A stretch of DNA of 37,764 bases from Candidatus Parcubacteria bacterium (GTDB lineage: Bacteria > Patescibacteriota > Minisyncoccia > SW-4-49-11), in NCBI GenBank assembly GCA_041177485.1, contig JBEDBC010000029.1:1-37764 (forward strand). Reading direction: 5' to 3'. Below, piece after piece: positions 3,618 to 31,320 of this stretch; position 1 is the stretch's first letter, and every line of letters starts with the position of its first letter. The notes below the pieces were generated by a model that was not told the origin of the DNA, made no database searches, and was given only the letters and a program-made list of their open reading frames with translations. A program made the position numbers and the translations under genes.

Positions 3618-3635
3618 ATTGATTAATATTAATTT

Positions 3636-4106
3636 TTATTTATCATGCACATCAGGCAATAAGCCTTCCTGAACCAAAGTGGGATAGATTTGACTTAAGC
3701 TTTCCTCTAGTCTGTCTAGAGCCACATAATCTTCTATTGCTAAAAAAGCATGAATTACGTCCAAAAGATCTTTTCCCTTGGTTGTGATGAGCTTTACAGA
3801 AACCTCAACTCTATGTTCTTCTGGAATAGAGATTAGCCACCCATATTTTTCTTGTAATTTAGGTGATAGTACCTTTGTGGGATAATTATTTTGATAGAAA
3901 TTTTTCTGCACTTCCACTACCTGCCTAATATGTTGCTCCGCTTGAGAATATGACCCTTGCTCTACTGATGGCTGCTCTAATGGTTGCTTATAATTTTCTA
4001 TGTTTCTAGGCGTTTCAAAGCCTCTATCTATATTGTTATTTTCTATATTAGGCTGAGGTCGCTCTATAGTGGTGGAGTTTTCTGAATTATTGTGTATTTC
4101 TGGCAT
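3636..4106 (-). CDS. hypothetical protein (N-terminal low-complexity N/E/Q-rich region plus a C-terminal globular part)
   Basis: 156-aa ORF lying 18 nt upstream of the ATPase gene in the same operon. I recognise no family. Confidence 0.5.
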   Translation of the reverse strand: MPEIHNNSENSTTIERPQPNIENNNIDRGFETPRNIENYKQPLEQPSVEQGSYSQAEQHIRQVVEVQKNFYQNNYPTKVLSPKLQEKYGWLISIPEEHRVEVSVKLITTKGKDLLDVIHAFLAIEDYVALDRLEESLSQIYPTLVQEGLLPDVHDK

Positions 4107-4115
4107 ATATGTTGT

Positions 4116-5915: not shown

Positions 5916-6731
5916 TTATTTAAACTTATAGTAAACTCTATCTTTAATTCTCAAATCTATATACTCTAACCTAGATCTTTGATCTGGATTGAGCTGTGAT
6001 TTGAATACTTGTTTGAGCACCTCTACCTGATATAAAACGTCTGTATCTAAATCTAGCATAATATAATATCCCTGTTCTGTATAGACAAAGACCCTCACTA
6101 TAAAGTCTCCAGATTTCTGTTGAACTGCAATCTCGGAAATCTTAATCTCTTCTATTTTACTATATTCTTGCAAGATTGTCTTGATCCACTGAGCTTCTCT
6201 CGGAGACATGATGCTATCTCCTTTTGCCTTCAGAGTTAATCCACTGAGTCGGGCGATAGGATCAGGCTCTAATCTCAACCCAATATTGAGACCATCTTCA
6301 CTAATATTATAACAATTTTCATTCTCACACATAGTTAGTAATATTGTTCTAAAGCTAATTTCAAGATCTAATTCACGATTCAAGCTACGCTTTATAATAA
6401 TGCTTTTTATTTGAGGGAACTCTTTGAGTAAATATTGTTCTAATTTATCTGCACGCAATAAAAATATATTTTTATTATTATACCACCAATAATTTTGACT
6501 GTTGATTAAATCCTCAGATTTAGACTTAATTTCACGTTTTAAATTTTCATCTTCTACCCTGACATTAATCTCCACCAAATCTAAAACCGGGGAATAAGCT
6601 AAGTAAACAATACCAGCCATGAGAGCTAATATAACTATAATCTGTAAAAATAGAAGCAATCTATTCGGCTTAGATTTTGCTGGTTTGGATTTATATCGTC
6701 CATAAGTTTTGGGAATATAAGACTTTTTCAT
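5916..6731 (-). CDS. FtsQ-like cell-division protein (TM anchor plus POTRA-type domain)
   Basis: 271 aa. Basic N-terminus, a single TM helix, then a POTRA_FtsQ-like pattern (NIFLLRADKLEQYLLKEFPQIKSIIIKRSLNRELDLEISFR). Confidence 0.5.
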   Translation of the reverse strand: MKKSYIPKTYGRYKSKPAKSKPNRLLLFLQIIVILALMAGIVYLAYSPVLDLVEINVRVEDENLKREIKSKSEDLINSQNYWWYNNKNIFLLRADKLEQYLLKEFPQIKSIIIKRSLNRELDLEISFRTILLTMCENENCYNISEDGLNIGLRLEPDPIARLSGLTLKAKGDSIMSPREAQWIKTILQEYSKIEEIKISEIAVQQKSGDFIVRVFVYTEQGYYIMLDLDTDVLYQVEVLKQVFKSQLNPDQRSRLEYIDLRIKDRVYYKFK

Positions 6732-19724: not shown

Positions 19725-20576
19725 TCAGTTGTCCCGACTCGTTATGTAATCAGCCAAAGCCAATAGTGGTTTTGCTCTTTCATCCCAAGGAGCTAATGCC
19801 TCCTTAGCCTTTAGTATCAACGCCTTGGCCCGCTGTCGAGACCCATCAAGCCCAAATAACTTGGGATATGTTGTCTTATCAGCAGTCAAATCCTTGCCGG
19901 CGGTTTTGACAAATATATCGCTAATGGCATTAAAATCGAGAATATCGTCAGTAATTTGGAAAGCTAGACAAATACAACTAGCATACACTCTCAGAGCCTC
20001 CACCATATCGTTGTTTGCACCTCCAATAATGGCTCCACTGACCACACTAGCCTGTAAAAGTGCTCCAGTCTTATGAATATGGATGTACTCAAGTGTATCA
20101 ATGTCTACCTCATTGCCTTCACATTCCAAACCCACCACCTGGCCACCCATTAGCCCCCTAGCACCAGAGGCAAGCGAAAGCTCACCAACTACAGCAAGCA
20201 ATCGCTCGGCTGGAACATCAGTACTATTTAAAGCCACCATCTCAAAGGCTCTGGCGAACAGAGTATTGCCGGCTAGAATTGCATTAGCCTCACCATATAC
20301 CTTATGGTTAGTGGGTCGGCCACGACGCAAGTCAGAATTATCTATTGGGGGTAGGTCGTCGTGTATCAGCGACATTGTATGAATCATCTCAATTGCCACA
20401 GCCGTGGGCATGGCTAGAGTAGGATTCCCTCCAGCTAGCTCACAAGCTGCCAAGCAAAGAATCGGCCGAAGTCTCTTACCACCAGCCAGTAGTGAATAAC
20501 TCATCGCTTCCCTGAGTTTTTCGGGAAACTCGGTTTTTGTACCTAGCGAGGTGTCAAGGGCTTCCTCCACCTGCAA
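19725..20576 (-). CDS. crtE: geranylgeranyl diphosphate synthase, cyanobacterial/plastid type; possibly N-terminally truncated or pseudogenised
   Basis: 283 aa. Contains LLAGGKRLRPILCLAACEL, EMIHTMSLIHDDLP (first Asp-rich motif), HKTGALL, FQITDDILD (second Asp-rich motif), KTAGKDL and a C-terminus LLALADYITSRDN. The open frame begins at TTG. The homologous frame continues upstream to ATG 20645 but is interrupted by TAA at 20615..20613. G+C is clearly higher than the rest of the window. Confidence 0.8.
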   Translation of the reverse strand: MQVEEALDTSLGTKTEFPEKLREAMSYSLLAGGKRLRPILCLAACELAGGNPTLAMPTAVAIEMIHTMSLIHDDLPPIDNSDLRRGRPTNHKVYGEANAILAGNTLFARAFEMVALNSTDVPAERLLAVVGELSLASGARGLMGGQVVGLECEGNEVDIDTLEYIHIHKTGALLQASVVSGAIIGGANNDMVEALRVYASCICLAFQITDDILDFNAISDIFVKTAGKDLTADKTTYPKLFGLDGSRQRAKALILKAKEALAPWDERAKPLLALADYITSRDN

Positions 20577-20750: not shown

Positions 20751-20926
20751 TTTCGTAGGGGCGACCTTTGTTCTAAAAATTCCCCTCTTGAGGGGTAGAT
20801 TTCTGCTATGTTTATATAGCGGGAAGACGGGGTGGAGTGTTTTTGGGCTATTTATAAATACTTTATTCCACCCCGTCAGGAAAGCCTGCCACCCCTCAAG
20901 AGGGGAATTAGCTCATCATCGCCCCC
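20751..20926. repeat. GC-rich nested-palindrome repeat, copy R1 (full length)
   Basis: Three nested inverted repeats. Outer pair: GGGGCGACC (about 20757) and ATCGCCCCCC (20917..20926). A and A' arms: AATTCCCCTCTTGAGGGGT (20778..20796) and CACCCCTCAAGAGGGGAATT (20890..20909). B and B' arms: GACGGGGTGGAGT (20827..20839) and ATTCCACCCCGTC (20866..20878). Near-identical copies occur at 27016.. and 31141... Confidence 0.9.
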
Positions 20927-20983
20927 CTTTCTCATTGAATAAAATCCCATACTTTGCTATAATTAGCTTAATATATAGCTTAA

Positions 20984-20989
20984 TATAAT
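20984..20989 (+). promoter_or_regulatory. -10 box (TATAAT) 6 nt upstream of the valS start codon
   Basis: TATAAT at 20984..20989, then caaact, then ATG 20996. No Shine-Dalgarno sequence, consistent with a leaderless transcript. Confidence 0.4.
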
Positions 20990-20995
20990 CAAACT

Positions 20996-23365
20996 ATGCC
21001 TCTTGCATCCAAATACGAAATTACTGAACGCGAAGCTCATTGGCGGGACTTCTGGGCTAAACAAAATATCTATGCCTTTGATGAGAATTCTGATAAGCCA
21101 ATTTTCTCAGTAGACACTCCCCCACCTTATGTTTCAGCGGATCACTTACATCCTGGGCATATTATGAGTTATTCTCAAGCTGAATTTGTAGTCAGATTCA
21201 AGCGAATGCAAGGCTATAATGTCTTTTATCCGATGGGGTTTGATGATAATGGACTCCCAACCGAGCGACATGTAGAAAAAAAATATAAAATAAAAAATAA
21301 AGATTCTATTAGCAGATCCGAATTTGTAAAATTATGTCTGGCAGAAACTCAAAAAGGCATACAAACCTATCGCAACCTTTGGTCACTCCTAGGAATTTCT
21401 GTAGATTGGTCTAAGACTTATTCTTCCATCAATACTCACTCTCAGAAAATCTCCCAATGGTCATTTTTAGATTTATATAAGAAGGGTCTCCTCACACAGA
21501 GAGAAGAACCTATTATGTGGGATATTAGCTTCCAGTCAGCTCTAGCCCAGACCGATTTAGAAGACTCCGAGCAAGACTCCCACTTGAATGACATCATTTT
21601 TACCTCCCAGGAATCAGGAGAGCAACTCATTATTGCCACCACTAGACCGGAACTTTTACCAGCAGCGGTAGCTTTATTCTTCCACCCTGAAGATAGTCGT
21701 TATCAGCATCTAATTGGAACTAGGGCTATTACTCCAATCTCTGGACATACTGTACCAATACTCACTGATGAGACTGTAGACAAAGACTTTGGAACTGGCT
21801 TGATGATGGTTTGTACTTGGGGAGATAGTGAGGATATTGCTAAATGGAAAAAATATAATCTTGAGACTAGATTGATTTTTAATCAAAAAGGGATTTTGAA
21901 TGAGATGGCTGGTAATTATGTTGGTGGACATATTAGCAAATTAAGACAATTAATTTTAGAAGATCTAAAAAAGCAGAATTTACTCGTCAAACAAACTCCT
22001 ATCACCCATACCGTCCAAGTCTCAGAGAGGTCAGGTACTCCGATAGAATTTATCTTGACCAAACAATGGTTTATCAATGTAGTAGAGCATAAAGAGGAAT
22101 TATTAGAGCAAGGTAAAAAATTAAATTGGTATCCAAAGCGAATGTTCTCCATTTATGCTGATTGGGTAAGTTCACTCAAATGGGATTGGTGTATTTCTAG
22201 ACAAAGATATTATGGAGTTCCAATTCCAGTCTGGTATCACAAACAAACTGGAGAGATTATACTACCCCAAGAAGACGAATTGCCCGTAGACCCAACCGAA
22301 TATACTCCTCGTGGGTATAAGGCTGAAGATTTAATTCCTGAGCAAGATGTACTAGATACTTGGATGACTTCCTCTATGTCGCCTGAAATTGGGGCTAGTC
22401 TCGTATCAAACCCTGAGCTGAGTGGTAAATTATTTCCATCTAGCCTAAGACCCCAGGCCTTTGAGATTATTCGAACTTGGCTATTTTATACAGTCACTAA
22501 AGCCTATTTTCATCATAATAAACTACCTTTCAACGATGTGATGATATCTGGACACGGCCTAGACAATCAAGGGCGTAAAATTAGCAAAAGACTAGGAAAT
22601 TTCACCCCACCAGAGCAGACTATTGCCAACTATGGAGCTGATGCTATGAGATATTGGGCTACTGGGACAACTCTGGGAGAAAACATCCGATTCAATGAAG
22701 AAGAAATCAAAAAAGGTAAGAAAACTGTCAACAAACTATTTAATGTTGGTAAATTTGCTGAATTACATCTACAAAACTTTACTTTGCTAGAACAATCTCC
22801 AGAATTAGAGCTAATAGACAAGTGGATACTAGCAGAACTTAATCAAACCATTACTCTTGCTACTGAGAGCTTTACGCAGTATGAGTATTACAAAGCTAGA
22901 ACGGCAATTGACCAATTATTCTGGAATAAATTCACTGATTATTATCTAGAGCTTATCAAGTATCGACTGTATGATGAAACCCCAGAAGGTCAAAAATCCC
23001 GCTTAGCGGCACAATATACTCTGTATGTATATATTGAGAATTTACTCAAATTATATGCTCCAATTCTACCATTTATCACCGAAGAGCTGTATCAAGGGCT
23101 ATTCCTAGACAATAATACTCAAAATACCAGCATACATATCTCCAATTGGCCAAAGAGCAATACAGCTTGGCAACTATCTGAAGATGAGAATAACATAATG
23201 ACAGATATACTATCCGTAGTAGAAGCCGTACGAGCTTATAAATCACAAAATAGTATATCACTTGGTAAAGAAATAGATACCTTCACCTATACTTCTACCC
23301 AAGATTTAAGCAATTATGAAAACTTTTTAGCCAAGGCTCTCAGAGTTGGCAAATTGATGAAGTAG
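20996..23365 (+). CDS. valS: valine--tRNA ligase (short, archaeal-like form)
   Basis: 789 aa. PPPYVSADHLHPGHIMSY (HIGH region), GFDDNGLPTE, WCISRQRYYGVPIPVW and GRKISKRLGN (KMSKS-like). Confidence 0.9.
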   Translation: MPLASKYEITEREAHWRDFWAKQNIYAFDENSDKPIFSVDTPPPYVSADHLHPGHIMSYSQAEFVVRFKRMQGYNVFYPMGFDDNGLPTERHVEKKYKIKNKDSISRSEFVKLCLAETQKGIQTYRNLWSLLGISVDWSKTYSSINTHSQKISQWSFLDLYKKGLLTQREEPIMWDISFQSALAQTDLEDSEQDSHLNDIIFTSQESGEQLIIATTRPELLPAAVALFFHPEDSRYQHLIGTRAITPISGHTVPILTDETVDKDFGTGLMMVCTWGDSEDIAKWKKYNLETRLIFNQKGILNEMAGNYVGGHISKLRQLILEDLKKQNLLVKQTPITHTVQVSERSGTPIEFILTKQWFINVVEHKEELLEQGKKLNWYPKRMFSIYADWVSSLKWDWCISRQRYYGVPIPVWYHKQTGEIILPQEDELPVDPTEYTPRGYKAEDLIPEQDVLDTWMTSSMSPEIGASLVSNPELSGKLFPSSLRPQAFEIIRTWLFYTVTKAYFHHNKLPFNDVMISGHGLDNQGRKISKRLGNFTPPEQTIANYGADAMRYWATGTTLGENIRFNEEEIKKGKKTVNKLFNVGKFAELHLQNFTLLEQSPELELIDKWILAELNQTITLATESFTQYEYYKARTAIDQLFWNKFTDYYLELIKYRLYDETPEGQKSRLAAQYTLYVYIENLLKLYAPILPFITEELYQGLFLDNNTQNTSIHISNWPKSNTAWQLSEDENNIMTDILSVVEAVRAYKSQNSISLGKEIDTFTYTSTQDLSNYENFLAKALRVGKLMK

Positions 23366-23455
23366 TAATATAAACTTTGTAGTGGAGAGTTTTGTACTAT
23401 TGTCTCTATCTGGAGAGGGGGGCAGTTTATATAACTTTTCCCTATGATTAAAACA

Positions 23456-23484
23456 CGAAAAAGCACTGACCAATGATCAGTGCT
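23456..23484 (-). terminator. terminator of the tRNA transcription unit
   Basis: AGCACTGA / TCAGTGCT 8-bp stem with a 7-nt loop, followed on the minus strand by TTTTTC. Confidence 0.55.
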
Positions 23485-23521
23485 AATAGCAATAAATTTT
23501 GGAGGGACAGATCCCTCGGAA

Positions 23522-23666
23522 TGGGAGTGATGGGATTTGAACCCACGACCTTTGGTTTTAGATTCAAGACATATAGATTGGGACTACACATCTCTTATGA
23601 AAATGGTTAGAGTTTAAAAGGCGCCTCTCTAACCCCAAGATGCAACCAAACAACACCTACACCCCC
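23522..23666 (-). tRNA. aberrant 145-nt tRNA-like gene (canonical acceptor, D and T arms; about 70 nt of extra sequence in the anticodon/variable region); identity unresolved, possibly Leu(UAG)-like
   Basis: - Acceptor stem: 5' GGGGGTG pairs with 3' CACTCCC (one G.U), with discriminator A.
- D arm: GGTG-TTGTTTGGTTG-CATC, a long class-II-like D loop with GG.
- T arm: GTGGG-TTCAAAT-CCCAT.
- Between them lie 92 nt instead of about 22. These include TTGGG...CCCAA, which could be the anticodon stem, and an 8-bp hairpin GGTTAGAG-N14-CTCTAACC. Confidence 0.45.
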
Positions 23667-23676
23667 TAGAGGGAAA

Positions 23677-23748
23677 CGACGGGAGAGTGATTCGAACCCT
23701 CGACCTCCTGCGAGTCATGCAGGCGCTCTACCACTGAGCTATCCCGCC
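23677..23748 (-). tRNA. tRNA-Val(GAC)-like, with non-canonical positions
   Basis: Cloverleaf: GGCGGGA-TA-GCTC-AGTGGTA-GAGC-G-CCTGC-ATGACTC-GCAGG-AGGTC-GAGGG-TTCGAAT-CACTC-TCCCGTC-G. Anticodon GAC. Oddities are U at position 37, a G52-A62 mismatch and discriminator G. No encoded CCA. Confidence 0.65.
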
Positions 23749-23762
23749 GTGAACCGTATATT

Positions 23763-23790
23763 ATTATACACACTTTATAAAATTAATCAA
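23763..23790 (-). promoter_or_regulatory. promoter of the tRNA unit
   Basis: Minus strand reads TTGATT (23790..23785), a 16-nt spacer, then TATAAT (23768..23763). About 15 nt upstream of the tRNA 5' end. Confidence 0.6.
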
Positions 23791-23810
23791 GAGCTGAGGT
23801 GAGAATAAAT

Positions 23811-23844
23811 AAAAAATTCCTCCCAACCCATGAGCAGGCGGGAG
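23811..23844 (-). terminator. terminator of small gene 23866..24141
   Basis: CTCCC...GGGAG hairpin followed on the minus strand by AATTTTTT. The sequence is paralogous to the terminator at 24570..24602. Confidence 0.5.
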
Positions 23845-23865
23845 TAGGTTGTAGATGAAGAAGCG

Positions 23866-24141
23866 TTAGGAAGGAGTCGGCCTAGATACGAGAAAATTTG
23901 TGTTTCTTGTATCTTGGGATGTTGGGGTTGTCTCAGAAAGAATTGTACAGGCTTGCTTGAGTACAGGGTACCGAGCGAACAATTGATTCAAAACTTTAAC
24001 GCTTTGATTTTCTCTTTGACTAATGTTAATAAAAACTTCAGCTACGCAGTGATTGAGTACTGCACGATTCCAATCCGAAGAAGATTGAGTATAGGCTTCA
24101 TAAGCTAGAGATGTTGCAGCAACTAAATCAATGATTTCCAT
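23866..24141 (-). CDS. orphan small protein (91 aa)
   Basis: I trimmed the ORF to ATG 24141 (MEIIDLVAATS...). It has its own TTGCAG-17-TGtTATAAA promoter and a terminator. No family recognised. Confidence 0.45.
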   Translation of the reverse strand: MEIIDLVAATSLAYEAYTQSSSDWNRAVLNHCVAEVFINISQRENQSVKVLNQLFARYPVLKQACTILSETTPTSQDTRNTNFLVSRPTPS

Positions 24142-24169
24142 TCTGAGCACCTAATGAAAGGACATTATT

Positions 24170-24198
24170 TTTATAACATATAATATTTTATTCTGCAA
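24170..24198 (-). promoter_or_regulatory. sigma70 promoter with extended -10
   Basis: Minus strand reads TTGCAG (24198..24193), a 17-nt spacer, then TGtTATAAA (-10 at 24175..24170). Confidence 0.6.
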
Positions 24199-24199
24199 G

Positions 24200-24234
24200 A
24201 AAAACCCCTCCAGACATATTACTGGAGGGGTTTT
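24200..24234. terminator. bidirectional-type terminator hairpin
   Basis: CCCCTCCAG-N8-CTGGAGGGG, a perfect 9-bp stem, flanked by an A-run on the left and a T-run on the right. It terminates minus-strand gene 24279..24506. Confidence 0.65.
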
Positions 24235-24278
24235 ATACTTTTAGATTTAACTAAAGTAAAACCTAAAGTTGTAATGAT

Positions 24279-24506
24279 TTAATGCTCTGCATCTGTAAGA
24301 TATAATTTATATCCATATTGACCATATCTTCTATGATGTTTCTCTATTGTATTTTTTTGATTCTTTAATGAGTAATAGAGTTTTTGGAGTTCAAATTTAT
24401 TTTTAATATCTTGATTAACTCTTAACATCTTATCCAATAACTCTATTATCCGCAGTAGTTTCCAATTAATGTGGCTTCTCAGCTTTGGAGATTGATTAGA
24501 AGTCAT
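24279..24506 (-). CDS. orphan small basic protein (75 aa)
   Basis: I trimmed the ORF from its TTG start to ATG 24506 (MTSNQSPKL...). TGtTAATAT lies 5 nt upstream of the ATG, which suggests a leaderless mRNA. Confidence 0.45.
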   Translation of the reverse strand: MTSNQSPKLRSHINWKLLRIIELLDKMLRVNQDIKNKFELQKLYYSLKNQKNTIEKHHRRYGQYGYKLYLTDAEH

Positions 24507-24511
24507 GAGTA

Positions 24512-24520
24512 ATATTAACA
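24512..24520 (-). promoter_or_regulatory. extended -10 element (TGtTAATAT) abutting the start codon
   Basis: Minus strand reads TGT (24520..24518) then TAATAT (24517..24512). 5 nt separate it from ATG 24506. Confidence 0.45.
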
Positions 24521-24569
24521 AAGATCAATATAATCTAATCATAAATTTACATTACTTGCAAATCTAAAT

Positions 24570-24602
24570 AAAAATCCTCCCAAACCATGACCTGGCGGGA
24601 GG
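24570..24602 (-). terminator. terminator of small gene 24622..24867
   Basis: CCTCCC-N15-GGGAGG hairpin followed on the minus strand by ATTTTTAT. Confidence 0.55.
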
Positions 24603-24621
24603 AAGTTGAAGAGATTGAGAA

Positions 24622-24867
24622 TTATGACAAAGTACCTATCAACCTCTTTTGTGATTCAAGTACCGGAAGTGGATATCTCCTATCCGATAGATTTTCCTTA
24701 TACTGAGTGATGTTAGGCTGATGATGTTGTAACAATTTTAGCAAAGTACTTAATTCGTTTTTATCTTGCTGCCTAAGTCCTTCTTCTTCCAATCTTTGTG
24801 GAATAATATTTAAAAGATTTAAGAGTCTATCAGAATCAAAGAAAATCCTTTTTACCGTCTGAGCCAT
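24622..24867 (-). CDS. orphan small protein (81 aa)
   Basis: I trimmed the ORF from its TTG start to ATG 24867 (MAQTVKRIFF...). AAGG lies about 9 nt upstream. It has its own TTGCCA-17-TATAAA promoter. Confidence 0.45.
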   Translation of the reverse strand: MAQTVKRIFFDSDRLLNLLNIIPQRLEEEGLRQQDKNELSTLLKLLQHHQPNITQYKENLSDRRYPLPVLESQKRLIGTLS

Positions 24868-24895
24868 TAGATGTACCTTGATTTGGGACAAATAA

Positions 24896-24924
24896 TTTAT
24901 ACCCTAAAATTAAATTTTTGGCAA
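24896..24924 (-). promoter_or_regulatory. sigma70 promoter
   Basis: Minus strand reads TTGCCA (24924..24919), a 17-nt spacer, then TATAAA (24901..24896). Confidence 0.55.
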
Positions 24925-24953
24925 GTGTTGGTGGGATAAGTTTACATTTGTAT

Positions 24954-25298
24954 TTCGTAGGGGCGACCTTACAGTCGCCTGTAAGTCCTCCTCAGCCGTC
25001 GCAAATAGGATTTGCTCCTATGAAACCTCACGGTTTCCCAACCTTCCTCCACGGGAAAACTACCGTTTTTCCGACCCCTTTCCCGTGACACCCACCTCCT
25101 AAATAAATATAGGAGGAACTTAAAGTCGCCCCAAGGGAGGACAAAATAACTGTCCCTCGCTGGCGAGGGTGGCACGGAGTGCCGGGTGTGGACTGAGTTT
25201 TTAATTCATAATTTCAAATTATTCCACCCCGTCAAGAAAATAGTAATCCACCCCCCCCTTCGGGGACTCCCTCCAAAGGGAGAAAATAAACCTCAAAC
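24954..25298. repeat. composite GC-rich hairpin-dense repeat block, copy R3
   Basis: - Starts with TTCGTAGGGGCGACC, the same 5' module as R1 and R4.
- Contains module GGAGGACAAAATAACTGTCCCTCGCTGGCGAGGGTG (25136..25171), which is the reverse complement (34/36) of 27241..27276.
- Contains a 33-nt exact direct copy of 27322..27354 at 25202..25234.
- Carries many short GC hairpins. Confidence 0.85.
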
Positions 25299-26069
25299 CT
25301 ACTTTTCGTTTCCAAAGTAGTACAATCTATACCCCCACATCCAATATCCCACTCCAGCCAATACCAGCCACCAAAACCCAAGCCAAGCTGAGATCCCAAT
25401 CCAAAAGCTCAAGCTCCAGAAACCAGACAAACTAAGCCAATAACTAATATTATTAGCTATTTGTTTGTGATTTAGGAATAGAAGATAAAATCCAGCAAAG
25501 GAGATAATACTAGTCACCATCCAACCAAAGAAATTCATCAAAGGCACTCCATAATACCAACCCTGAATTTCCCACACCCAAAAACCTAAAGCCGTGGCCC
25601 CTGGATCAAGAATCAAATCAAAAGTCGTCATCAAAATAGCTCCAATGATAGTGTTGAGCCAAACTTTCTTGATTTGTAGCCTACTCACCAATACCAAACT
25701 AAAGAAAAAAATTGGCACCCAAGATAAACTCACTGTCCAAGGTACTAACCCGAAGACTTTAAGATTGCCAAGCACCTCACCATATACAAAATTACTATAT
25801 GGCCAACCGGTAGCGATAGCAAAAGATTCTATCAGAAGTGGATAGCTGAATATAATTAGTATTTTCCACCAATCTTGCCTCAAATCAAACCACTTAGATA
25901 GTCCGTATAATATGGGAAAAGCAATCAAAACATTAGTCACCTGCGAGATGGCTTGGAATATCCAAAAAGGAAAAGGTAAGGCTTCTGGCCTCAAACTAAA
26001 ATATACTACAAAGAATCCACTCAGGATTAAGATAATGGCTGGAATAATTAGTAATAATTTTTTCTGCAT
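25299..26069 (-). CDS. cruF: CruF-family carotenoid 1,2-hydratase-like membrane protein (DUF422 / 'carotenoid biosynthesis protein')
   Basis: 256 aa with about 7 TM helices. Motifs LILDPGATALGFWVWE and YYGVPLMNFFGWM match my recollection of the PF04240/CruF family. Adjacent to a lyeJ-like prenyltransferase and a CrtI-family desaturase. Confidence 0.7.
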   Translation of the reverse strand: MQKKLLLIIPAIILILSGFFVVYFSLRPEALPFPFWIFQAISQVTNVLIAFPILYGLSKWFDLRQDWWKILIIFSYPLLIESFAIATGWPYSNFVYGEVLGNLKVFGLVPWTVSLSWVPIFFFSLVLVSRLQIKKVWLNTIIGAILMTTFDLILDPGATALGFWVWEIQGWYYGVPLMNFFGWMVTSIISFAGFYLLFLNHKQIANNISYWLSLSGFWSLSFWIGISAWLGFWWLVLAGVGYWMWGYRLYYFGNEK

Positions 26070-26103
26070 ATATGATATACTTAGATTATATAATTATATC
26101 ACA

Positions 26104-26943
26104 ATGAGTATTGCTAAACTATTACAAATTTCCAGACCCAGATTTTGGATTTATCTCTTGGGGCCTTATTTGATTGGGAGTATTCTTGGCTTTGACCCGA
26201 TGCAAATTATCTGGCAATGGCAATTTTGGCTTGGATTTGTATATTTTAACCTACCTGCTAATCTTTTGATTTATGGAGTCAATGATATTTTTGATTATGA
26301 GACTGACAAACTCAATCCAAAAAAACAAAATTATGAAGCCCTAGTCACTCCGGCTGAGCATATTTCTCTTTGGACTTGGATTATACTTACTAATATTCCT
26401 TTTATTCTAGCTATATATTTGCTAAACCCTTTGACTTTATTTGGTTGGCTTGGATTTATTATCTTGGGGGTGCAATATTCAGCTTGGCCAATTCGGGCTA
26501 AGGCGAAGCCATTTTTGGATTCTATTTTTAATATTTTATATATTTTTCCTGGAGTAATTGGATATACTCTCTTAGCTAATAAACTCAATCTAGACTGGAA
26601 ATTATTATTAAGTGCTGGATTATGGACTATGGCTATGCATACTTATTCAGCTATCCCAGATATTGAGGCTGATAGGGCGAGCCATACCACCACTATTGCA
26701 ACTGTACTGGGAGCTAAGTTGACCTTGGTGTATTGTTTTATCTGCTATACTCTAGCTGGAATTTTGTTAGCTCAATTTAGCACCCCACTTGGGATTATAA
26801 TTGCTATTGTATATGGATTTATGATTGGCTTTAGTTGGTCTCAAAATACCGCTAAAATATTCAGATTATACACCTATTTCCCAGCCTTAAACACAGTAAT
26901 TGGCTTGCTTTTATTCTGGAGCATAGTGATTTGGTATAGGTAG
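26104..26943 (+). CDS. lyeJ: UbiA-family prenyltransferase, lycopene elongase/hydratase (LyeJ)-like
   Basis: I trimmed the track ORF 25912.. to ATG 26104. 279 aa. SRPRFWIYLLGPYL, LPANLLIYGVNDIFDYETDKLNPKK (Asp-rich motif), YSAWPIRAKAKPFLDS and MHTYSAIPDIEADR match motifs I recall from haloarchaeal lycopene elongase. Confidence 0.7.
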   Translation: MSIAKLLQISRPRFWIYLLGPYLIGSILGFDPMQIIWQWQFWLGFVYFNLPANLLIYGVNDIFDYETDKLNPKKQNYEALVTPAEHISLWTWIILTNIPFILAIYLLNPLTLFGWLGFIILGVQYSAWPIRAKAKPFLDSIFNILYIFPGVIGYTLLANKLNLDWKLLLSAGLWTMAMHTYSAIPDIEADRASHTTTIATVLGAKLTLVYCFICYTLAGILLAQFSTPLGIIIAIVYGFMIGFSWSQNTAKIFRLYTYFPALNTVIGLLLFWSIVIWYR

Positions 26944-27015
26944 TTTATTATGTTATAAATCTCTTTTAGGGCTTTTAGTCCCTCCTATTATTTCTTTTAA
27001 AGAGATATTAGGAGG

Positions 27016-27392
27016 GGGGGCGATCTTTGTTCTAAAAATTCCCCTCTTGAGGGGTGGATTCATGCTATGTTTATATAGAAGGGAGACGGGGTGGAGTGTT
27101 TTAAATCTATTTATAAATACTCCACCCCGTCAGGCAAGCCTGACCACCCCTCAAGAGGGGAATTTAGCTCAGTCCCTAAACTAGACAGAGTAGACTTTGA
27201 TATATATATTTTGCCTATCCACACCCGTCGACTTCGTCTACACCCTCGCCAGCGAGGGACAGTTTTATTGTCCTCCTTTGGAGGAGGTGGCACCTTAGGT
27301 GACGGAGGAGGACAAAATATATAATTCATAATTTCAAATTATTCCACCCCGTCAGGCAAGCCTGCCACCCCTCAAGAGGGGAATTTAGCTCA
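27016..27392. repeat. GC-rich nested-palindrome repeat, copy R2 (full unit 27016..27175) plus extension modules and a half unit (27341..27392)
   Basis: A arm at 27037..27057, B at 27085..27097, B' at 27121..27131, A' at 27145..27165. These are followed by module CACCCTCGCCAGCGAGGGACAGTTTTATTGTCCTCC (27241..27276), the TTGTCCTCC...GGAGGACAA inverted repeat, and a second B'-A' half ending 3 nt from the crtI-family stop codon. Confidence 0.9.
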
Positions 27393-27394
27393 AT

Positions 27395-28897
27395 CTAACT
27401 CTCTCCTCTCAGTGGGCTGTCTTGTTTGATTTTAGCTATTCTTTTATAGACCATCTCAGCACTAATTAGTTGGATGGGTACTCCAATTCCTGGATTGGTT
27501 CCTGCTCCGACATAGTATAGATTTTTGACTTTTTTGGAATAATTATTAGGTCTAAATATTGCAGTTTGATTAATAGTATGAGCAAGCCCAAGAGCTGTAC
27601 CCTGATAGGCATTATAATCTTGCTTAAAGTCTTTGACACTATATAGTCTTTTATAAATAATTCTCTGTTGCAAGTTTGGGATATTCATCTCCTCTTGCAT
27701 AATGGTAAGCACCTTATCAGCATAGGCTTCTAATTGCTCCTCGGTATACTCGAGTCCAGCTGCAATCGGAACAAGTACAAATAAATTCTCATCAGTAGCT
27801 GGAGCAACACTAGGGTCGGTCTTGGATGGAGCACAGACATATAGAGACGGGTCTTCCGGCCACATTGGATCATCAAAAATTTGCTTGAAGTTTGTCCTCC
27901 AATCCTGAGAGAATAAGAGGTTATGATGTACTAGGCTATCCACTTTACCTTTGATTCCTAGATACATAATAAGTGCTGAAGGGGCTAGAACTTTTTTATC
28001 CCAATATTTCTCATCATATTGGCGATACTGGGATGGTAGCAGATTTAATTCGGTATGAGTCATATCGGCATTAGATACCACGATATCTGCTTTTACAATT
28101 TCTCTAGACTCAAGCTCTACACCTATCGCCTTACCATTTTTTACAATAATTTGTCTCGCTCCATTGCCACTGACCAAATTTACTCCATTTTTCTTGGCGA
28201 TATTGACCAGAGCTTCAGTAATTGTATACATACCACCTTGTGGGTAAAAAACACCCATATTAAAGTCAATATGATTCATAATACTATATAGAGCTGGAGT
28301 ATTATATGGAGAGCTACCCAGGAAAACTAGAGGGTATTGGAGAATTTTTTTGACTAAGTCATTTTTGAAATATTTGCTCACATAGGCATCCATATTACTA
28401 AAGACAGATAATTTGGAGCCTTCTATCATAGTTCTGAAGTTTATAAAGTCAAAGATAGAGTCATAATTTTTATACATAAATCCATCTTTGGCAATTTCAT
28501 ATTGCTGGCGGGCTTTATCTAAATATTCCCTGAGTCTGTCTCCAGCGCCTGGCTCTAAATCTTCCAAAACTGGGATATCTCGCTCTAGATCGGAGAACAT
28601 ATCGATAATTTTGTTATCATCTTTGAAAAATATCCGATAAGATGGCTCCAAGCGAATCAAGTCCAAGTGATCCTCTACCTTCTCCCCCATAAATTCAAAA
28701 AAATTCTCGAATACATCAGGCATCAGATACCAAGATGGCCCCATATCAAACTTGAATCCCTCAACCTCAAAGATATTAGCTCGTCCTCCTAAATTAGAGT
28801 TTTTCTCATATAGACTAACTTCATATCCTTTTTTGGCTAAGATACAAGCAGTGGCTAGCCCCCCAATTCCCCCACCGATAATAATTACTTTTTGCAT
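27395..28897 (-). CDS. crtI: phytoene desaturase-family FAD oxidoreductase (CrtI/CrtD type; by context possibly a carotenoid 3,4-desaturase)
   Basis: 500 aa. N-terminal FAD fold VIIIGGGIGGLATA...YEKNSNLGGR, FDMGPSWYLMPDVFE, and C-terminal YYVGAGTNPGIGVP are typical of the CrtI family. Confidence 0.85.
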   Translation of the reverse strand: MQKVIIIGGGIGGLATACILAKKGYEVSLYEKNSNLGGRANIFEVEGFKFDMGPSWYLMPDVFENFFEFMGEKVEDHLDLIRLEPSYRIFFKDDNKIIDMFSDLERDIPVLEDLEPGAGDRLREYLDKARQQYEIAKDGFMYKNYDSIFDFINFRTMIEGSKLSVFSNMDAYVSKYFKNDLVKKILQYPLVFLGSSPYNTPALYSIMNHIDFNMGVFYPQGGMYTITEALVNIAKKNGVNLVSGNGARQIIVKNGKAIGVELESREIVKADIVVSNADMTHTELNLLPSQYRQYDEKYWDKKVLAPSALIMYLGIKGKVDSLVHHNLLFSQDWRTNFKQIFDDPMWPEDPSLYVCAPSKTDPSVAPATDENLFVLVPIAAGLEYTEEQLEAYADKVLTIMQEEMNIPNLQQRIIYKRLYSVKDFKQDYNAYQGTALGLAHTINQTAIFRPNNYSKKVKNLYYVGAGTNPGIGVPIQLISAEMVYKRIAKIKQDSPLRGES

Positions 28898-28927
28898 ATT
28901 TGAAACAATTTAACTTAATTTACGTAT

Positions 28928-28936
28928 ATTATAACA
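28928..28936 (-). promoter_or_regulatory. extended -10 promoter element of the crtI-family gene
   Basis: Minus strand reads TGTTATAAT (28936..28928), about 30 nt upstream of ATG 28897. Confidence 0.5.
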
Positions 28937-28956
28937 TAAATTTAAGAGTAAAACTA

Positions 28957-28965
28957 TGCTATAAT
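28957..28965 (+). promoter_or_regulatory. extended -10 promoter element of the small membrane-protein gene
   Basis: TGcTATAAT (28957..28965). A GGAG lies just upstream of the ATG pair at 28985/28991. Confidence 0.5.
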
Positions 28966-28990
28966 ATATTTATCCTTTCTGGAGATGTTT

Positions 28991-29179
28991 ATGGATTGGA
29001 AGATTTTGCTAGGAGCTTCAATTATCTTGTTTATATCTACTGGAATAAGTTTCAGAGCACATCTACATACCCCTCTGAAAAGAAGAACTGAAGGAGGCTT
29101 TCAACCTTTTACTTTTTTTCTTCTATTAGCTTCGGGGGCCTTAATCGCCTCAATCTTGTTCTTTTTTTTTGATAATTAG
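28991..29179 (+). CDS. small two-TM membrane protein (62 aa; an alternative start at 28985 gives 64 aa)
   Basis: MDWKILLGASIILFISTGISF...FFLLLASGALIASILFFFF gives two hydrophobic helices. It has its own extended -10 promoter and a strong terminator, and is divergent from the crtI-family gene. Confidence 0.5.
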   Translation: MDWKILLGASIILFISTGISFRAHLHTPLKRRTEGGFQPFTFFLLLASGALIASILFFFFDN

Positions 29180-29202
29180 ATATCTTATCATCGCACACTA
29201 AA

Positions 29203-29238
29203 AGCCTCGGGGGACATCATCCACGAGGCTTGTTTTTT
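29203..29238 (+). terminator. rho-independent terminator
   Basis: AGCCTCG-N14-CGAGGCT stem followed by TGTTTTTT. Confidence 0.65.
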
Positions 29239-29285
29239 CATAAACAAAAAGATTTGGTTATATACATATAGTTAATAGCTTGCAT

Positions 29286-29315
29286 TTGCATAATTAGCTA
29301 ACTTTATGGTATATA
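29286..29315 (+). promoter_or_regulatory. sigma70 promoter with extended -10
   Basis: TTGCAT (29286..29291), 18-nt spacer, TGgTATATA (-10 at 29310..29315). Confidence 0.55.
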
Positions 29316-29343
29316 TAAAAAGCCTTTGTTTTCACTAAGTACA

Positions 29344-29499
29344 ATGAGTGATCAAACCTTCCAAAGAGCTAAGTACAAGATTGCAATTCATAAGAGTATA
29401 GGGAAATCTTGGCATACTGTATTCTCTACGATGGATGAGGCTGCTCAATCTTGGTTGGATTACCAAACACAAAAAAGCCCAACATCTATTGAAGAATGA
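29344..29499 (+). CDS. 51-aa small protein (unannotated; replaces antisense track ORF 29335..29541)
   Basis: Own translation: MSDQTFQRAKYKIAIHKSIGKSWHTVFSTMDEAAQSWLDYQTQKSPTSIEE. It has a plus-strand promoter upstream and a plus-strand terminator downstream. The sequence has the flavour of small beta-beta-alpha proteins, but this is not a confident family call. Confidence 0.5.
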   Translation: MSDQTFQRAKYKIAIHKSIGKSWHTVFSTMDEAAQSWLDYQTQKSPTSIEE

Positions 29500-29582
29500 T
29501 TCAATACAGTAAACCCAGGGGCATTTCCCTATGTATCTCACCCTATGAGATTATAGAAATTATGTGCCTAATTCAAAATATA

Positions 29583-29609
29583 TGAGATAGCTAGATCTAT
29601 CTCATTTTT
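29583..29609 (+). terminator. rho-independent terminator
   Basis: TGAGATAG-ctagat-CTATCTCA, a perfect 8-bp stem, followed by TTTTT. Confidence 0.65.
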
Positions 29610-29613
29610 ATAT

Positions 29614-29640
29614 AAAAGCACCCCGTACAGAGTACAGGGG
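29614..29640 (-). terminator. terminator of the 30099-to-29672 two-gene unit
   Basis: CCCCGTAC / GTAC(A)GGGG bulged stem followed on the minus strand by TGCTTTTATA. Confidence 0.5.
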
Positions 29641-29671
29641 GAATAAGGAATAAGGAATTATGAATTTAGGT

Positions 29672-29917
29672 TCAACGAAATTTAGAACGGATTGTTCGCA
29701 TCTTGCGTAGTAATACATACCACACACTAATTCGAAATCCATTAAGCTCTAATATTGCTATTTTATAATTGTTCTCCAGATTTAAAAAGTATCGATCAAA
29801 CTTGTCTGGATCTTCAGAATATAATCTATCCAAACTTAACAATCTACAATCCTCAATTTGTGACTTCAGATATCTAAACAGTTGTCTAATTTTGACAAAG
29901 TTAGATTGTGATTTCAT
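29672..29917 (-). CDS. orphan small protein (81 aa)
   Basis: ORF coupled by an ATGA overlap to the upstream small TM-protein gene. No family recognised. Confidence 0.45.
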   Translation of the reverse strand: MKSQSNFVKIRQLFRYLKSQIEDCRLLSLDRLYSEDPDKFDRYFLNLENNYKIAILELNGFRISVWYVLLRKMRTIRSKFR

Positions 29918-30099
29918 GTTAAAATTCTAACAATTGAGGAATTTTTATTGTCGTTTTTATCTTGTTGCCAAGCTAAAAGAGCTATACCAAGTCCTGACAC
30001 TAGTAAGAGCATTAATACACTAGCACATGCACCAATGAAACTGATTCTAGATTGTGGTTGAGGTTGATTCGACATAACAAGATAAATGTCGAGGTACAT
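29914..30099 (-). CDS. orphan small single-TM protein (61 aa; an alternative start at Met9, position 30075)
   Basis: Hydrophobic helix ISFIGACASVLMLLLVSGLGIALLAW. The promoter's -10 box ends only 4 nt before ATG 30099, so the internal start may be the one used. Confidence 0.45.
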   Translation of the reverse strand: MYLDIYLVMSNQPQPQSRISFIGACASVLMLLLVSGLGIALLAWQQDKNDNKNSSIVRILT

Positions 30100-30103
30100 A
30101 TTT

Positions 30104-30132
30104 TATATAACATATCTCTAAAAATAAGACAA
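30104..30132 (-). promoter_or_regulatory. sigma70 promoter with extended -10
   Basis: Minus strand reads TTGTCT (30132..30127), a 17-nt spacer, then TGtTATATA (-10 at 30109..30104). Confidence 0.6.
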
Positions 30133-30138
30133 GTAATT

Positions 30139-30166
30139 AAAAATCTGGCAACAGTGTGTGCCAGAT
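30139..30166 (-). terminator. rho-independent terminator
   Basis: ATCTGGCA-N8-TGCCAGAT, a perfect 8-bp stem, followed on the minus strand by TTTTT. Confidence 0.65.
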
Positions 30167-30176
30167 TTTAAAGTTA

Positions 30177-30359
30177 TTATTGACCAGACATAATATCTGG
30201 TGGATTATTTAGATGCAAAAGTTGGCTTCTCTCATTTTCTGCTCTTCTTCTATCCTTTTGTATTTGCATGATTCCACGCGTAATAACTCTACTCACAGTT
30301 GGATCCTGGAGAAATTTTTTAAACATAGTCCCAAAATCTGATGCTGGGTACTCCACCAT
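30177..30359 (-). CDS. orphan small protein (60 aa)
   Basis: I trimmed the track ORF from its GTG start at 30386 to ATG 30359 (MVEYPASDF...). AAGAGG lies 6 nt upstream. A TTGACA-16-TGaTAATAT promoter lies upstream. Confidence 0.5.
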   Translation of the reverse strand: MVEYPASDFGTMFKKFLQDPTVSRVITRGIMQIQKDRRRAENERSQLLHLNNPPDIMSGQ

Positions 30360-30387
30360 AAGACCTCTTAGAAGATAGGCAAACACA

Positions 30388-30415
30388 ATATTATCACAAC
30401 CATAAAATTTGTCAA
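30388..30415 (-). promoter_or_regulatory. sigma70 promoter with extended -10
   Basis: Minus strand reads TTGACA (30415..30410), a 16-nt spacer, then TGaTAATAT (-10 at 30393..30388). Confidence 0.65.
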
Positions 30416-30425
30416 GAGTATATAT

Positions 30426-30453
30426 GAAACCCCCCGCAGTTTACCTACGGGGG
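30426..30453 (-). terminator. candidate terminator
   Basis: CCCCCG-N11-CGGGGG stem followed on the minus strand by a weak T-run (TTTCAT). Confidence 0.4.
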
Positions 30454-30471
30454 CGATAAAAACACAAGACA

Positions 30472-30735
30472 TTATTGCCAACATGGACCCCATCTTTGAT
30501 ACCAATTCTTCTGCCTCATTAAATAGCATTTTGCCTTTGGGTTATCTGGTGATGGAAAAGTTGGAGCACTTAAAGATTTAATTATATTATTGACTATATG
30601 TGAATTTGAATTCGCCATAGTTGGAGTATAGACCATAAATCCTAACACTCCAACCAATAATAACACATATTTAAGCCTTGTCATTTTACTGACTCGGCGG
30701 GGAAGAAAACAATTTGAAAGATCATGATCTTCCAT
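30472..30735 (-). CDS. small secreted protein/peptide precursor (87 aa; start possibly Met18)
   Basis: Signal-peptide-like MTRLKYVLLLVGVLGFMVYTPTMA. The mature part ends in a W/K/R-rich segment bracketed by two Cys (KCYLMRQKNWYQRWGPCWQ). Confidence 0.5.
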   Translation of the reverse strand: MEDHDLSNCFLPRRVSKMTRLKYVLLLVGVLGFMVYTPTMANSNSHIVNNIIKSLSAPTFPSPDNPKAKCYLMRQKNWYQRWGPCWQ

Positions 30736-30761
30736 AAAATTTGACAGCAGAGGTCGACATA

Positions 30762-30790
30762 TTTATAACATATCTAAAAAACTTTGTAAA
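30762..30790 (-). promoter_or_regulatory. sigma70 promoter with extended -10
   Basis: Minus strand reads TTTACA (30790..30785), a 17-nt spacer, then TGtTATAAA (-10 at 30767..30762). Confidence 0.6.
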
Positions 30791-30809
30791 GTCTAATTTG
30801 ACAAATTAG

Positions 30810-31058
30810 ATGATTTTGGGTATTGTGAATGAGTCTTTTTGGGAGATTATTTTGCAAATTCAGGAGCTGGAAATTAGCATCAAAAGGATTCAAGCTAGAA
30901 TTAGATTTTTAAGAAAAAATATATTAAAAAATCATAATCTAAAAGTAAAAATTGAATCTTTGAAACAAAAAATCAATGATCTACTACAGTTAGAAGATGA
31001 CTGGCTAACAGTACATTATAGCGAAGCAAGGTATATCCATGAAAAAGCAAATCACTGA
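30810..31058 (+). CDS. orphan coiled-coil-like small protein (82 aa)
   Basis: Heptad-like charged/hydrophobic pattern (ELEISIKRIQARIRFLRKNILKNHNLKVKIESLKQKINDLLQLE). Followed by a strong terminator. Start and promoter are not well defined. Confidence 0.45.
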   Translation: MILGIVNESFWEIILQIQELEISIKRIQARIRFLRKNILKNHNLKVKIESLKQKINDLLQLEDDWLTVHYSEARYIHEKANH

Positions 31059-31061
31059 TCT

Positions 31062-31100
31062 AACCCCACCCCCGACTTTGGAGGTGGGGTTCTAAGTTTT
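31062..31100 (+). terminator. rho-independent terminator
   Basis: AACCCCACC-N12-GGTGGGGTT, a perfect 9-bp stem, followed by CTAAGTTTT. Confidence 0.6.
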
Positions 31101-31140
31101 ATGTAGAGGAGGTTAAAATTAAGTTTAATCTGTGATAGTA

Positions 31141-31320
31141 GGGGGAAACCTTTCAGTCGCCTGTGTTTTTTACTAAAATTCCCCTCTTGAGGGGTGGATT
31201 CCTGTTATGGTTATATAGCGGGGAGACGGGGTGGAGTGTTTTTATATTATTTATAAATACTGTATTCCACCCCGGCCTACGGGAACCCTCTTGAGGGGAA
31301 TTTAGATCAGTCCACACCCT
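31141..31320. repeat. GC-rich nested-palindrome repeat, copy R4
   Basis: - 5' module GGGGGAAACCTTTCAGTCGCCTGT.
- A arm AAATTCCCCTCTTGAGGGGTGG (31177..31198).
- B arm GACGGGGTGGAGT (31225..31237).
- B' arm ATTCCACCCCG (31264..31274).
- Variant A' arm CCCTCTTGAGGGGAATTT (31286..31303).
- 3' tail CAGTCCACACCC, shared with R3.
- Abuts the murI stop codon. Confidence 0.9.

Follow-up and report, generated by a model that had tools for sequence, protein, structure and literature searches.

Repetitive extragenic palindromic (REP) sequences of Pseudomonas and E. coli are short GC-rich palindromes that lie mostly between genes, form inverted doublets (REPINs) folding into one long hairpin, and bracket, as inverted copies of the same repeat, one small gene, that of the REP-associated tyrosine transposase (RAYT), without target-site duplication. 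A repeat family sharing these features was analysed on contig JBEDBC010000029.1 of a Candidatus Parcubacteria bacterium (assembly GCA_041177485.1; the whole stretch of 37,764 nucleotides, read on the forward strand, is referred to as the window), where an initial annotation had reported GC-rich nested palindromes in a region of carotenoid genes. By its behaviour, the family of repeat units appears closest to the REPIN-RAYT systems, and it differs from them in that the bracketed gene belongs to DUF559 (PD-(D/E)XK, Vsr-like) and not to the IS200-type HUH Y1 transposases, in that the unit comprises two hairpins and a box over 45-60 nt in place of a single 20-40-nt imperfect palindrome preceded by GTAG (the GTAG module of the window is separate from the unit), and in that a near-identical core occurs across phyla, with full-length copies often in frame in genes. 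The unit is the inverted terminal repeat of a ~0.5-kb DUF559 element found in many phyla, and the window repeats (doublets, solo and variant units) are probably non-autonomous derivatives of that element without its open reading frame (ORF), similar to REPINs and to miniature inverted-repeat transposable elements (MITEs).

Bacterial interspersed mosaic elements share with the window the intergenic mosaics of several palindromic unit types in alternating orientation (here 24957-25290 and 27014-27387), and differ in unit sequence, which is unrelated, in host range, and in the DUF559 link found here. MITEs such as Correia elements and Nezha are likewise small, non-coding, multicopy, bounded by terminal inverted repeats, and plausibly deletion derivatives of a gene-carrying element, whereas the present units have neither a target-site duplication nor a DDE transposase partner, and their ends are structured hairpins, where MITEs have simple inverted repeats. 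Rickettsia palindromic elements are comparable in behaviour, as palindromic repeats tolerated in frame within protein-coding genes, but here the insert can hold a whole endonuclease domain and the family extends beyond one genus. The Vsr-like/EDxHD homing endonuclease genes (I-Bth0305I) have the protein clade (PMC3424549), the small selfish nuclease gene, and insertion at the same site (HsdS, HsdR) in common with the DUF559 element, whereas the latter lacks an intron or intein, carries structured inverted repeats on both sides, and is accompanied by dispersed gene-less repeat copies. Hairpin ends, the lack of target duplications, and a plausible single-stranded DNA intermediate are shared with IS200/IS605, but the ends of those elements are not mutual inverted repeats, and their enzyme is a Y1 HUH transposase. 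Since the bracketed gene is not a Y1 transposase, and no target duplication, DDE partner, intron, or intein was found, the DUF559-unit family appears to fall outside these known classes.

Inverted units in the window

Three complete nested palindromes of ~135 bp each were located (20777-20911, 27036-27166, and 31176-31304), together with rearranged relatives at 24957-25290 and 27219-27387. A repeat search of the window returned a direct-repeat family (109 nt, 83-87% identity, at 20767, 27026, and 31166), perfectly complementary 21-22-nt arms (AAATTCCCCTCTTGAGGGGTGG / CCACCCCTCAAGAGGGGAATTT) both inside single loci and from locus to locus, and an inverted pair of 41 nt (25131-25171 and 27241-27281), whose arms show 93% complementarity. 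Three-way alignment of the complete copies gave a mean column identity of 82%, and the GC content of the units was 47-60%, versus ~35% for the contig. A covariance model (R1), built from units of other genomes only, matched the window significantly at seven places only, all of them type-1 units, with E-values between 8e-6 and 5e-21. The copies, the partial copies, and the GC-richness that had been described initially are therefore real.

The unit plan, 45-60 nt long, consists of hairpin 1 (TTCCCCTC-TT-GAGGGG), TG(G), a variable hairpin 2, and a box, (AC)GGGGTGGA, and fits 125 of 135 genomic instances. The G-rich box repeats the 3' arm of hairpin 1, which holds in every variant unit at the rearranged loci; the variant plans are CCCTCGC..CGAGGG-TG-hairpin-GGGTGTGGAC, CCTCC..AGGAGG-TG-hairpin-GGAGGAGGACA, and CTCCCTCC..GGGAG with box GGGGGGTGGA. 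Each nested palindrome consists of two type-1 units, tail to tail and with an AT-rich centre between them; hairpin 2 is long in one unit and short in the other. This parsing replaces the earlier description as nested A, B, B', and A' arms with a separate palindrome, CAGGCAAGCCTG, since the latter is the second hairpin of the unit on the minus strand. In the third copy, the right unit is degenerate. Folded as single-stranded DNA, the three doublets formed long nested hairpins, with energies between -26 and -46 kcal/mol and z-scores between -6 and -12, a stability matched by 0 of 200 shuffles, and all three have REPIN-type geometry (two inverted units, short spacer, one long hairpin). The features are as follows.

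20755-20776, plus strand: left outer module, GTAGGGGCGACC plus TTTGTTCTAAA linker, the left half of a module made of GTAG and a GGCGAC/GTCGCC hairpin; its GGGGCGA (20759-20765) is complementary to ATCGCCCC at 20918-20927, and the module also adjoins units at Paceibacteria loci L012, L019, and L024.
20777-20836, plus strand: type-1 unit of doublet 1, hairpin 1 CCCCTC-TT-GAGGGG, long hairpin 2 (CTGCTAT..ATAGCGG), box GGGGTGGA (R1 38.5 bits, E 6e-11).
20837-20866, no strand: AT-rich centre of doublet 1, the unpaired loop of the long hairpin.
20867-20911, minus strand: type-1 unit of doublet 1, short hairpin 2 (CAGGCTTTCCTG; R1 59.8 bits, E 1.6e-18).
20918-20927, plus strand: right outer arm ATCGCCCCCC, which pairs with 20759-20765.
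24957-24982, plus strand: complete GTAG-hairpin module, GTAGGGGCGACC-TTACA-GTCGCCTGT, of REP-like form, found again at 31138-31164 and at L019, L024, and L103.
25146-25193, plus strand: variant 'type-3' unit, hairpin 1 CCCTCGC-TGG-CGAGGG, TG, hairpin 2 GCAC-GGA-GTGC, box GGGTGTGGAC; a weak R1 match, with an inverted copy at 27219-27262 (93% over 41 nt).
25221-25233, plus strand: lone box complement ATTCCACCCCGTC, left over from a type-1 unit on the minus strand (direct-repeat family D2).
25247-25289, minus strand: variant 'type-2-like' unit, TCCACCCCCC / CCTTCGGGG / ACTCCCTCCAAAGGGAG (R1 15.2 bits, E 0.011); this variant is paired with type-1 units at L003, L004, L090, and L093.
27014-27035, plus strand: left outer module of doublet 2, GGGGGGGCGATC plus TTTGTTCTAAA.
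27036-27095, plus strand: type-1 unit of doublet 2, long hairpin 2 (R1 42.4 bits, E 2.3e-12).
27096-27120, no strand: AT-rich centre of doublet 2.
27121-27166, minus strand: type-1 unit of doublet 2, hairpin 2 CAGGCTTGCCTG (R1 57.7 bits, E 9e-18).
27219-27262, minus strand: type-3 unit (inverted repeat I1).
27269-27314, plus strand: variant 'type-4' unit, hairpin 1 CCTCC-TTTGG-AGGAGG, TG, hairpin 2 GCACC-TTA-GGTGA, box GGAGGAGGACA; ~90% conserved in related strain L201.
27343-27387, minus strand: solo type-1 unit (R1 66.8 bits, E 5e-21), the best fit to the cross-phylum model; absent from L201.
31138-31164, plus strand: variant of the GTAG-hairpin module, GTAGGGGGAAACC-TTTCA-GTCGCCTGT, kept in related strain L202.
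31176-31235, plus strand: type-1 unit of doublet 3, long hairpin 2 (R1 46.6 bits, E 8e-14); missing in L202.
31236-31265, no strand: AT-rich centre of doublet 3.
31266-31304, minus strand: degenerate type-1 unit of doublet 3, hairpin-1 loop inverted and hairpin 2 shortened (R1 24 bits, E 8e-6).

The GTAG and GGCGAC/GTCGCC hairpin forms a second repeat module (20755-20766, 24957-24982, 27014-27025, and 31138-31164), which accompanies the units and also occurs at L012, L019, L024, and L103. At copies 1 and 2 its left half only is present, as if the doublet sat in the loop of the module.

By the ORF list and Pfam scans, every window copy is intergenic, in agreement with the placement at gene boundaries reported initially. 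Copy 1 occupies the spacer between the divergent starts of the genes for polyprenyl synthase and valyl-tRNA synthetase (ValRS), the second repeat-bearing spacer (the 24957-25290 region) lies 3' of a CruF-type gene, the third separates the convergent genes of a UbiA-family prenyltransferase and a CrtI/CrtD-type desaturase, and the fourth has a small ORF on one side and an Asp/Glu racemase on the other.

Whether the pairing of the arms is conserved, a question posed with the initial annotation, was answered on 25 distinct units, in which hairpin 2 covaries: five of its six pairs have changed on both sides (33 such cells), a score reached by 0 of 500 shuffles. This strong conserved structure with a covarying hairpin 2, and the position of most window copies at gene 3' ends, would also be expected of a structured RNA or regulatory module selected by the host (terminator, mRNA stabiliser, small RNA, or insulator) and not mobile, and the predicted fold of the unit strand has 153 G-U pairs, versus 18 on the complement. 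The G-U count was not relied on as a strand test, however, since the unit strand is G+T-rich and the excess may merely reflect this. GNA triloops closed by a C-G pair are the signature of very stable d(GNA) DNA mini-hairpins, and 67 of ~110 hairpin-2 loops are of this kind (GAA, GCA, GTA); the loop preference therefore points to DNA, not RNA, structure. An Rfam scan of the whole window at gathering thresholds returned tRNA-Val only, and the best sub-threshold matches in a permissive scan of copy 1 were at chance level. The window units are not followed by a T-run, as an intrinsic terminator would be, copy 1 lies between divergent gene starts and another copy between convergent genes, units occur in both orientations and within coding sequences in five of six frames, and copies differ between close strains. 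A host-selected RNA or regulatory module, as entertained initially, is accordingly improbable, and mobile DNA is the preferred reading of the hairpins.

DUF559 genes between inverted units

At several genomic loci a unit is followed by an ORF and then by inverted units. The bracketed ORF (110-130 aa) was assigned by Pfam to DUF559 (PF04480, E 1e-20 to 1e-24), for which a sequence search found one relative only among solved structures, 3hrl, an 'endonuclease-like protein' of Neisseria gonorrhoeae; a published survey (PMC3424549) placed the homing endonuclease I-Bth0305I in one group with Vsr, DUF559, and DUF2726. For an 80-locus set, metagenome contigs were searched with an alignment of four DUF559 cores, with no selection on the repeat, 562 of the 600 candidates passed confirmation, and the 80 best loci were kept. 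The unit model gave 210 matches in these loci (E <= 1e-3, 299 kb), with a unit on the gene's strand no more than 200 nt upstream of DUF559 at 62 of the 80 loci, an inverted unit just downstream at 63, and units on both sides at 55; ten loci had a unit on neither side, several of them cut by the contig end. The unit is thus physically linked to DUF559, and the terminal inverted repeats of the ORF-less window copies are common to the gene-carrying element.

The bracketed element, 495 bp long at the median, runs from TTCCCC to GGGGAA, with AA before it and T(T/A) after it, between flanking sequences that are unrelated. Its two ends have matching hairpin-1 and box variants and usually a different hairpin 2, and hairpin 1 and the box vary between elements. 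Among 53 full-length elements, no direct repeat beyond the terminal AA/TT was found, that is, no target-site duplication; an apparent GACGGA repeat around the L093 insert was considered as one and did not generalise. Truncated DUF559 remnants adjoin units at L097 and L055.

No transposase, integrase, or RAYT gene was found in the window (ORF list and Pfam scans), as the initial annotation had stated, but elsewhere the same units bracket a DUF559 endonuclease gene. An ordinary REP/REPIN family moved by a RAYT (IS200-like Y1 transposase) encoded elsewhere, with DUF559 as a frequent bystander, would fit the REPIN geometry of the doublets, the GTAG-plus-hairpin module beside window units, and the lack of target-site duplication. 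Against it, the gene between inverted units is DUF559 in 55-63 of the 80 loci and never a Y1 transposase, the unit has two hairpins over 45-60 nt where REPs have 20-40 nt, and the window holds no RAYT, so that this reading is given very little probability. No DDE-type transposase partner was found either, the partner of the units being a PD-(D/E)XK Vsr-like protein.

A tblastn search of DUF559 against plasmids gave three distant matches only. One of these, a DUF559 of 37% identity on a Synechocystis plasmid, has inverted hairpin-plus-box repeats of other sequence on both sides, inside a DUF1156 gene, an arrangement which suggests that the bracket pattern is general. At this locus (L204, Synechocystis sp. 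B12 plasmid CP101712.1, 35250-35950), the gene is annotated 'endonuclease domain-containing protein' and lies between inverted CCCCTCTCC-type repeats, and the DUF1156 gene is apparently split into two annotated coding sequences.

The distribution of the unit was scanned with the exact 19-mer AATTCCCCTCTTGAGGGGT against one genome per species (GTDB), and matches were found in more than 118 stretches at the least, for a chance expectation that we estimate at ~4 (2 x 5.96e11 / 4^19). The element is therefore not confined to the window loci; such confinement had been named initially as an outcome that would count against a dispersed family. Within Patescibacteria the 19-mer was found in Paceibacteria, Saccharibacteria, Gracilibacteria, and Peribacteria, and beyond them in Bacteroidota (including cultured Pedobacter, Flavobacterium, and Parasediminibacterium), Bacillota, Thermotogaceae, Nitrospirota, Kapaibacteria/Ignavibacteria, Verrucomicrobiota, Chlamydiota, Desulfobulbaceae, and others; among the matches listed, single metagenome-assembled genomes carry it on 5 to >15 contigs. 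The exact 19-mer had 0 matches in IMG/VR viral contigs, and blastn of the doublet against phage and plasmid collections gave no match. The proposal of a MITE-like or REP/BIME-like family is supported by this dispersal within genomes and across phyla, together with the inverted doublets, the module mosaics, and presence or absence between strains. On a Kapaibacterium contig (L079, ~6080-6464), a long tandem array of the heptamer ACGAATT begins directly after a unit.

At 18 of the 80 loci the frame continues without a stop for hundreds of codons both before and after DUF559, and host genes were identified by Pfam as HsdS (L121, L122, L134, L135), HsdR (L138, L150, L151, L159, and L148, open on the downstream side only), N6/N4 DNA methyltransferases (L125, L129, L131, L136, plus the type III mod of L093), Eco57I-type enzymes (L126, L127), type ISP enzymes (L162, L199), fumarase (L149), and QueA at two different positions (L177 on both sides, L180 on the downstream side only). 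Five of the six frames of the unit contain no stop codon, and the left unit is usually read NSPLEGW.... When the L149 fumarase is aligned with a class II fumarase of solved structure, its residues 65-182 match 11-121 and its residues 358-700 match 129-467, so that ~175 aa (unit, DUF559, unit) stand in place of ~7 linker residues, just before the HPNDxVN motif. The palindromic repeat is in frame inside genes of related loci (L093 mod, L090 hsdS, L149 fumarase), not in the window. The same HsdS and HsdR insertion sites recur, with no intron or intein, the insert being read through in frame. In the L150 HsdR (ORF 1499-5323), the DUF559 insert and a GIY-YIG domain lie between HSDR_N and the SWI2/SNF2 ATPase, two selfish-nuclease folds at one site. 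The two QueA (tRNA ribosyltransferase-isomerase) positions of the element, in L177 and L180, are on two contigs of one metagenome series.

The main rival to a DUF559 element with ORF-less derivatives reverses the order of events: the doublet would be primary, spread by other means, and a free-standing DUF559 homing gene would cut ORF-less doublets at their centre and copy itself in. The clade shared with I-Bth0305I (PMC3424549), the absence of target-site duplication, the position of the DUF559 gene, which is always exactly that of the AT-rich centre in ORF-less doublets, and the GIY-YIG domain beside DUF559 in one HsdR, as at a homing-gene hotspot, all agree with it. Homing does not explain, however, how doublets and solo units came to lie at hundreds of unrelated sites, and the truncated DUF559 remnants suggest decay from full-length to ORF-less copies, not invasion; we regard it as unlikely, and derivation of the ORF-less copies from the DUF559 element is retained as the best explanation.

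Strain turnover and a proposed mechanism

CrtD relatives at 97%, 92%, and 82% identity led to three related strains, and no type-1 unit was found in any of them. At two sites where the strains lack type-1 copies, the flanking genes are 92-97% identical. The murI spacer of the 97% strain (L202) matches at ~90% on both sides, with ~105 bp absent that correspond to the plus-strand unit and the centre. In the lyeJ-crtD spacer of the 92% strain (L201), ~270 bp holding the doublet are absent, as is the solo unit, the type-4 unit is kept at ~90% identity, and another palindromic module is present, inverted, at the opposite end of the spacer. Type-1 copies thus turn over quickly between close strains. 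In L201 (4975-9286), hsdM, a RhuM-family gene, and hsdS (type I restriction-modification) follow the carotenoid genes, replacing tRNA-Val/ValS, and the synteny break falls exactly at the repeat-rich spacer.

Recombination scars left by the acquisition of carotenoid genes had also been suggested, and the copies do cluster around crtE, cruF, the UbiA-family gene, and the desaturase, with a GC-rich crtE region (49%). The same unit occurs, however, in hundreds of unrelated contexts and phyla, one copy lies beside murI, and a close strain has the carotenoid genes without type-1 copies, which leaves this suggestion hardly credible; like the regulatory-RNA and true REP/RAYT readings, it matches the data poorly.

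For the DUF559 element we infer that DUF559 itself is the mobilising enzyme. In single-stranded or supercoiled DNA, the ends of the element would be extruded as hairpins or as a cruciform; the DUF559 nuclease, by its predicted activity, would recognise and nick the extruded ends, and the element would then be copied or moved with no duplication of the target. Gene-less doublets would be mobilised in trans, or left behind once the gene was lost, and the copies in this contig would be passengers of intergenic spacers, with rapid turnover and a possible incidental effect on transcription or mRNA stability.

Several points weigh against this account. The DUF559 query was built from unit-associated proteins, so the 80-locus result covers that subfamily (47-67% identity) and not every DUF559, and physical linkage by itself would make protein and repeats co-vary. 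Neither the window nor the Paceibacteria 8-kb tiles examined contained a DUF559 gene, and a cognate enzyme in this organism is therefore putative. The comparison with sister genomes that had been proposed gave type-1 copies absent at two sites but no precise empty site, the differences being replacement, rearrangement, and module inversion rather than clean excision. Recurrent insertion at the same HsdS and HsdR sites fits homing or vertical descent as well as transposition.

A broader proposal, to which we give rather less than even weight, is that the units and DUF559 constitute a previously undescribed, cross-phylum class of selfish DNA, in which a Vsr-like PD-(D/E)XK nuclease (not a DDE, HUH, or serine/tyrosine enzyme) would mobilise an element with structured inverted repeats and no target duplication, with an in-frame life in restriction-modification and housekeeping genes and with REPIN-like gene-less doublets. 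No description of repeats flanking DUF559 was found in the literature searched. No role has been assigned to the very large DUF559 family; the bracket together with dispersed gene-less copies is the same type of evidence that tied RAYTs to REPINs, and it offers a directly testable hypothesis on what these proteins do. If true, it would give this large orphan family a function and, if confirmed, would add a mobile element driven by a nicking enzyme of the restriction-endonuclease fold; it would also explain why HsdR, HsdS, DNA methyltransferases, QueA, and fumarase contain odd inserted domains. For annotation, peptides encoded by the repeat would no longer be called as N-termini or as spurious small ORFs. 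For the candidate phyla radiation, very small genomes too would be seen to carry actively turning-over repeat families, which mark synteny breakpoints.

Neighbouring genes and minor features

The gene content of the contig (short ValRS, IleRS, dTDP-rhamnose genes, TrwB-like ATPase) fits a bacterium of the candidate phyla radiation, and the closest named relatives of the window desaturase are Patescibacteria. An archaeal origin with TATA-box promoters and a cyanobacterial origin were both considered and rejected, since the CrtD relatives and the genes present indicate Patescibacteria. The contig corresponds to Ga0466463_000015 in JGI metagenome 3300045526. Gene names given initially (crtE, cruF, lyeJ, murI, and others) are plausible from the Pfam domains but not proven. 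A four-gene carotenoid set comprises a polyprenyl synthase (19725-20576), a CruF-type Caroten_synth protein (25299-26069), a UbiA-family prenyltransferase (25912-26943), and a CrtI/CrtD-type desaturase (27395-28897); it resembles the bacterioruberin-type C50 route, and pigment synthesis is unexpected in such reduced genomes. Relatives of the desaturase at 60-70% identity are numerous, some of them named Patescibacteria or Uhrbacteria. At 20001-20500, the polyprenyl synthase gene has ~49% GC, versus ~35% for the contig; since its Pfam coverage is continuous, the GC-rich stretch is not an inserted repeat, and a foreign origin is possible.

ValRS (20996-23365) has 789 aa, short for a bacterial enzyme, and adjoins tRNA-Val(GAC) at 23676-23749. 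A perfect 13-bp hairpin at 24201-24234 (AAAACCCCTCCAG / CTGGAGGGGTTTT) lies between runs of A and T and resembles a bidirectional intrinsic terminator; it is unrelated to the units.

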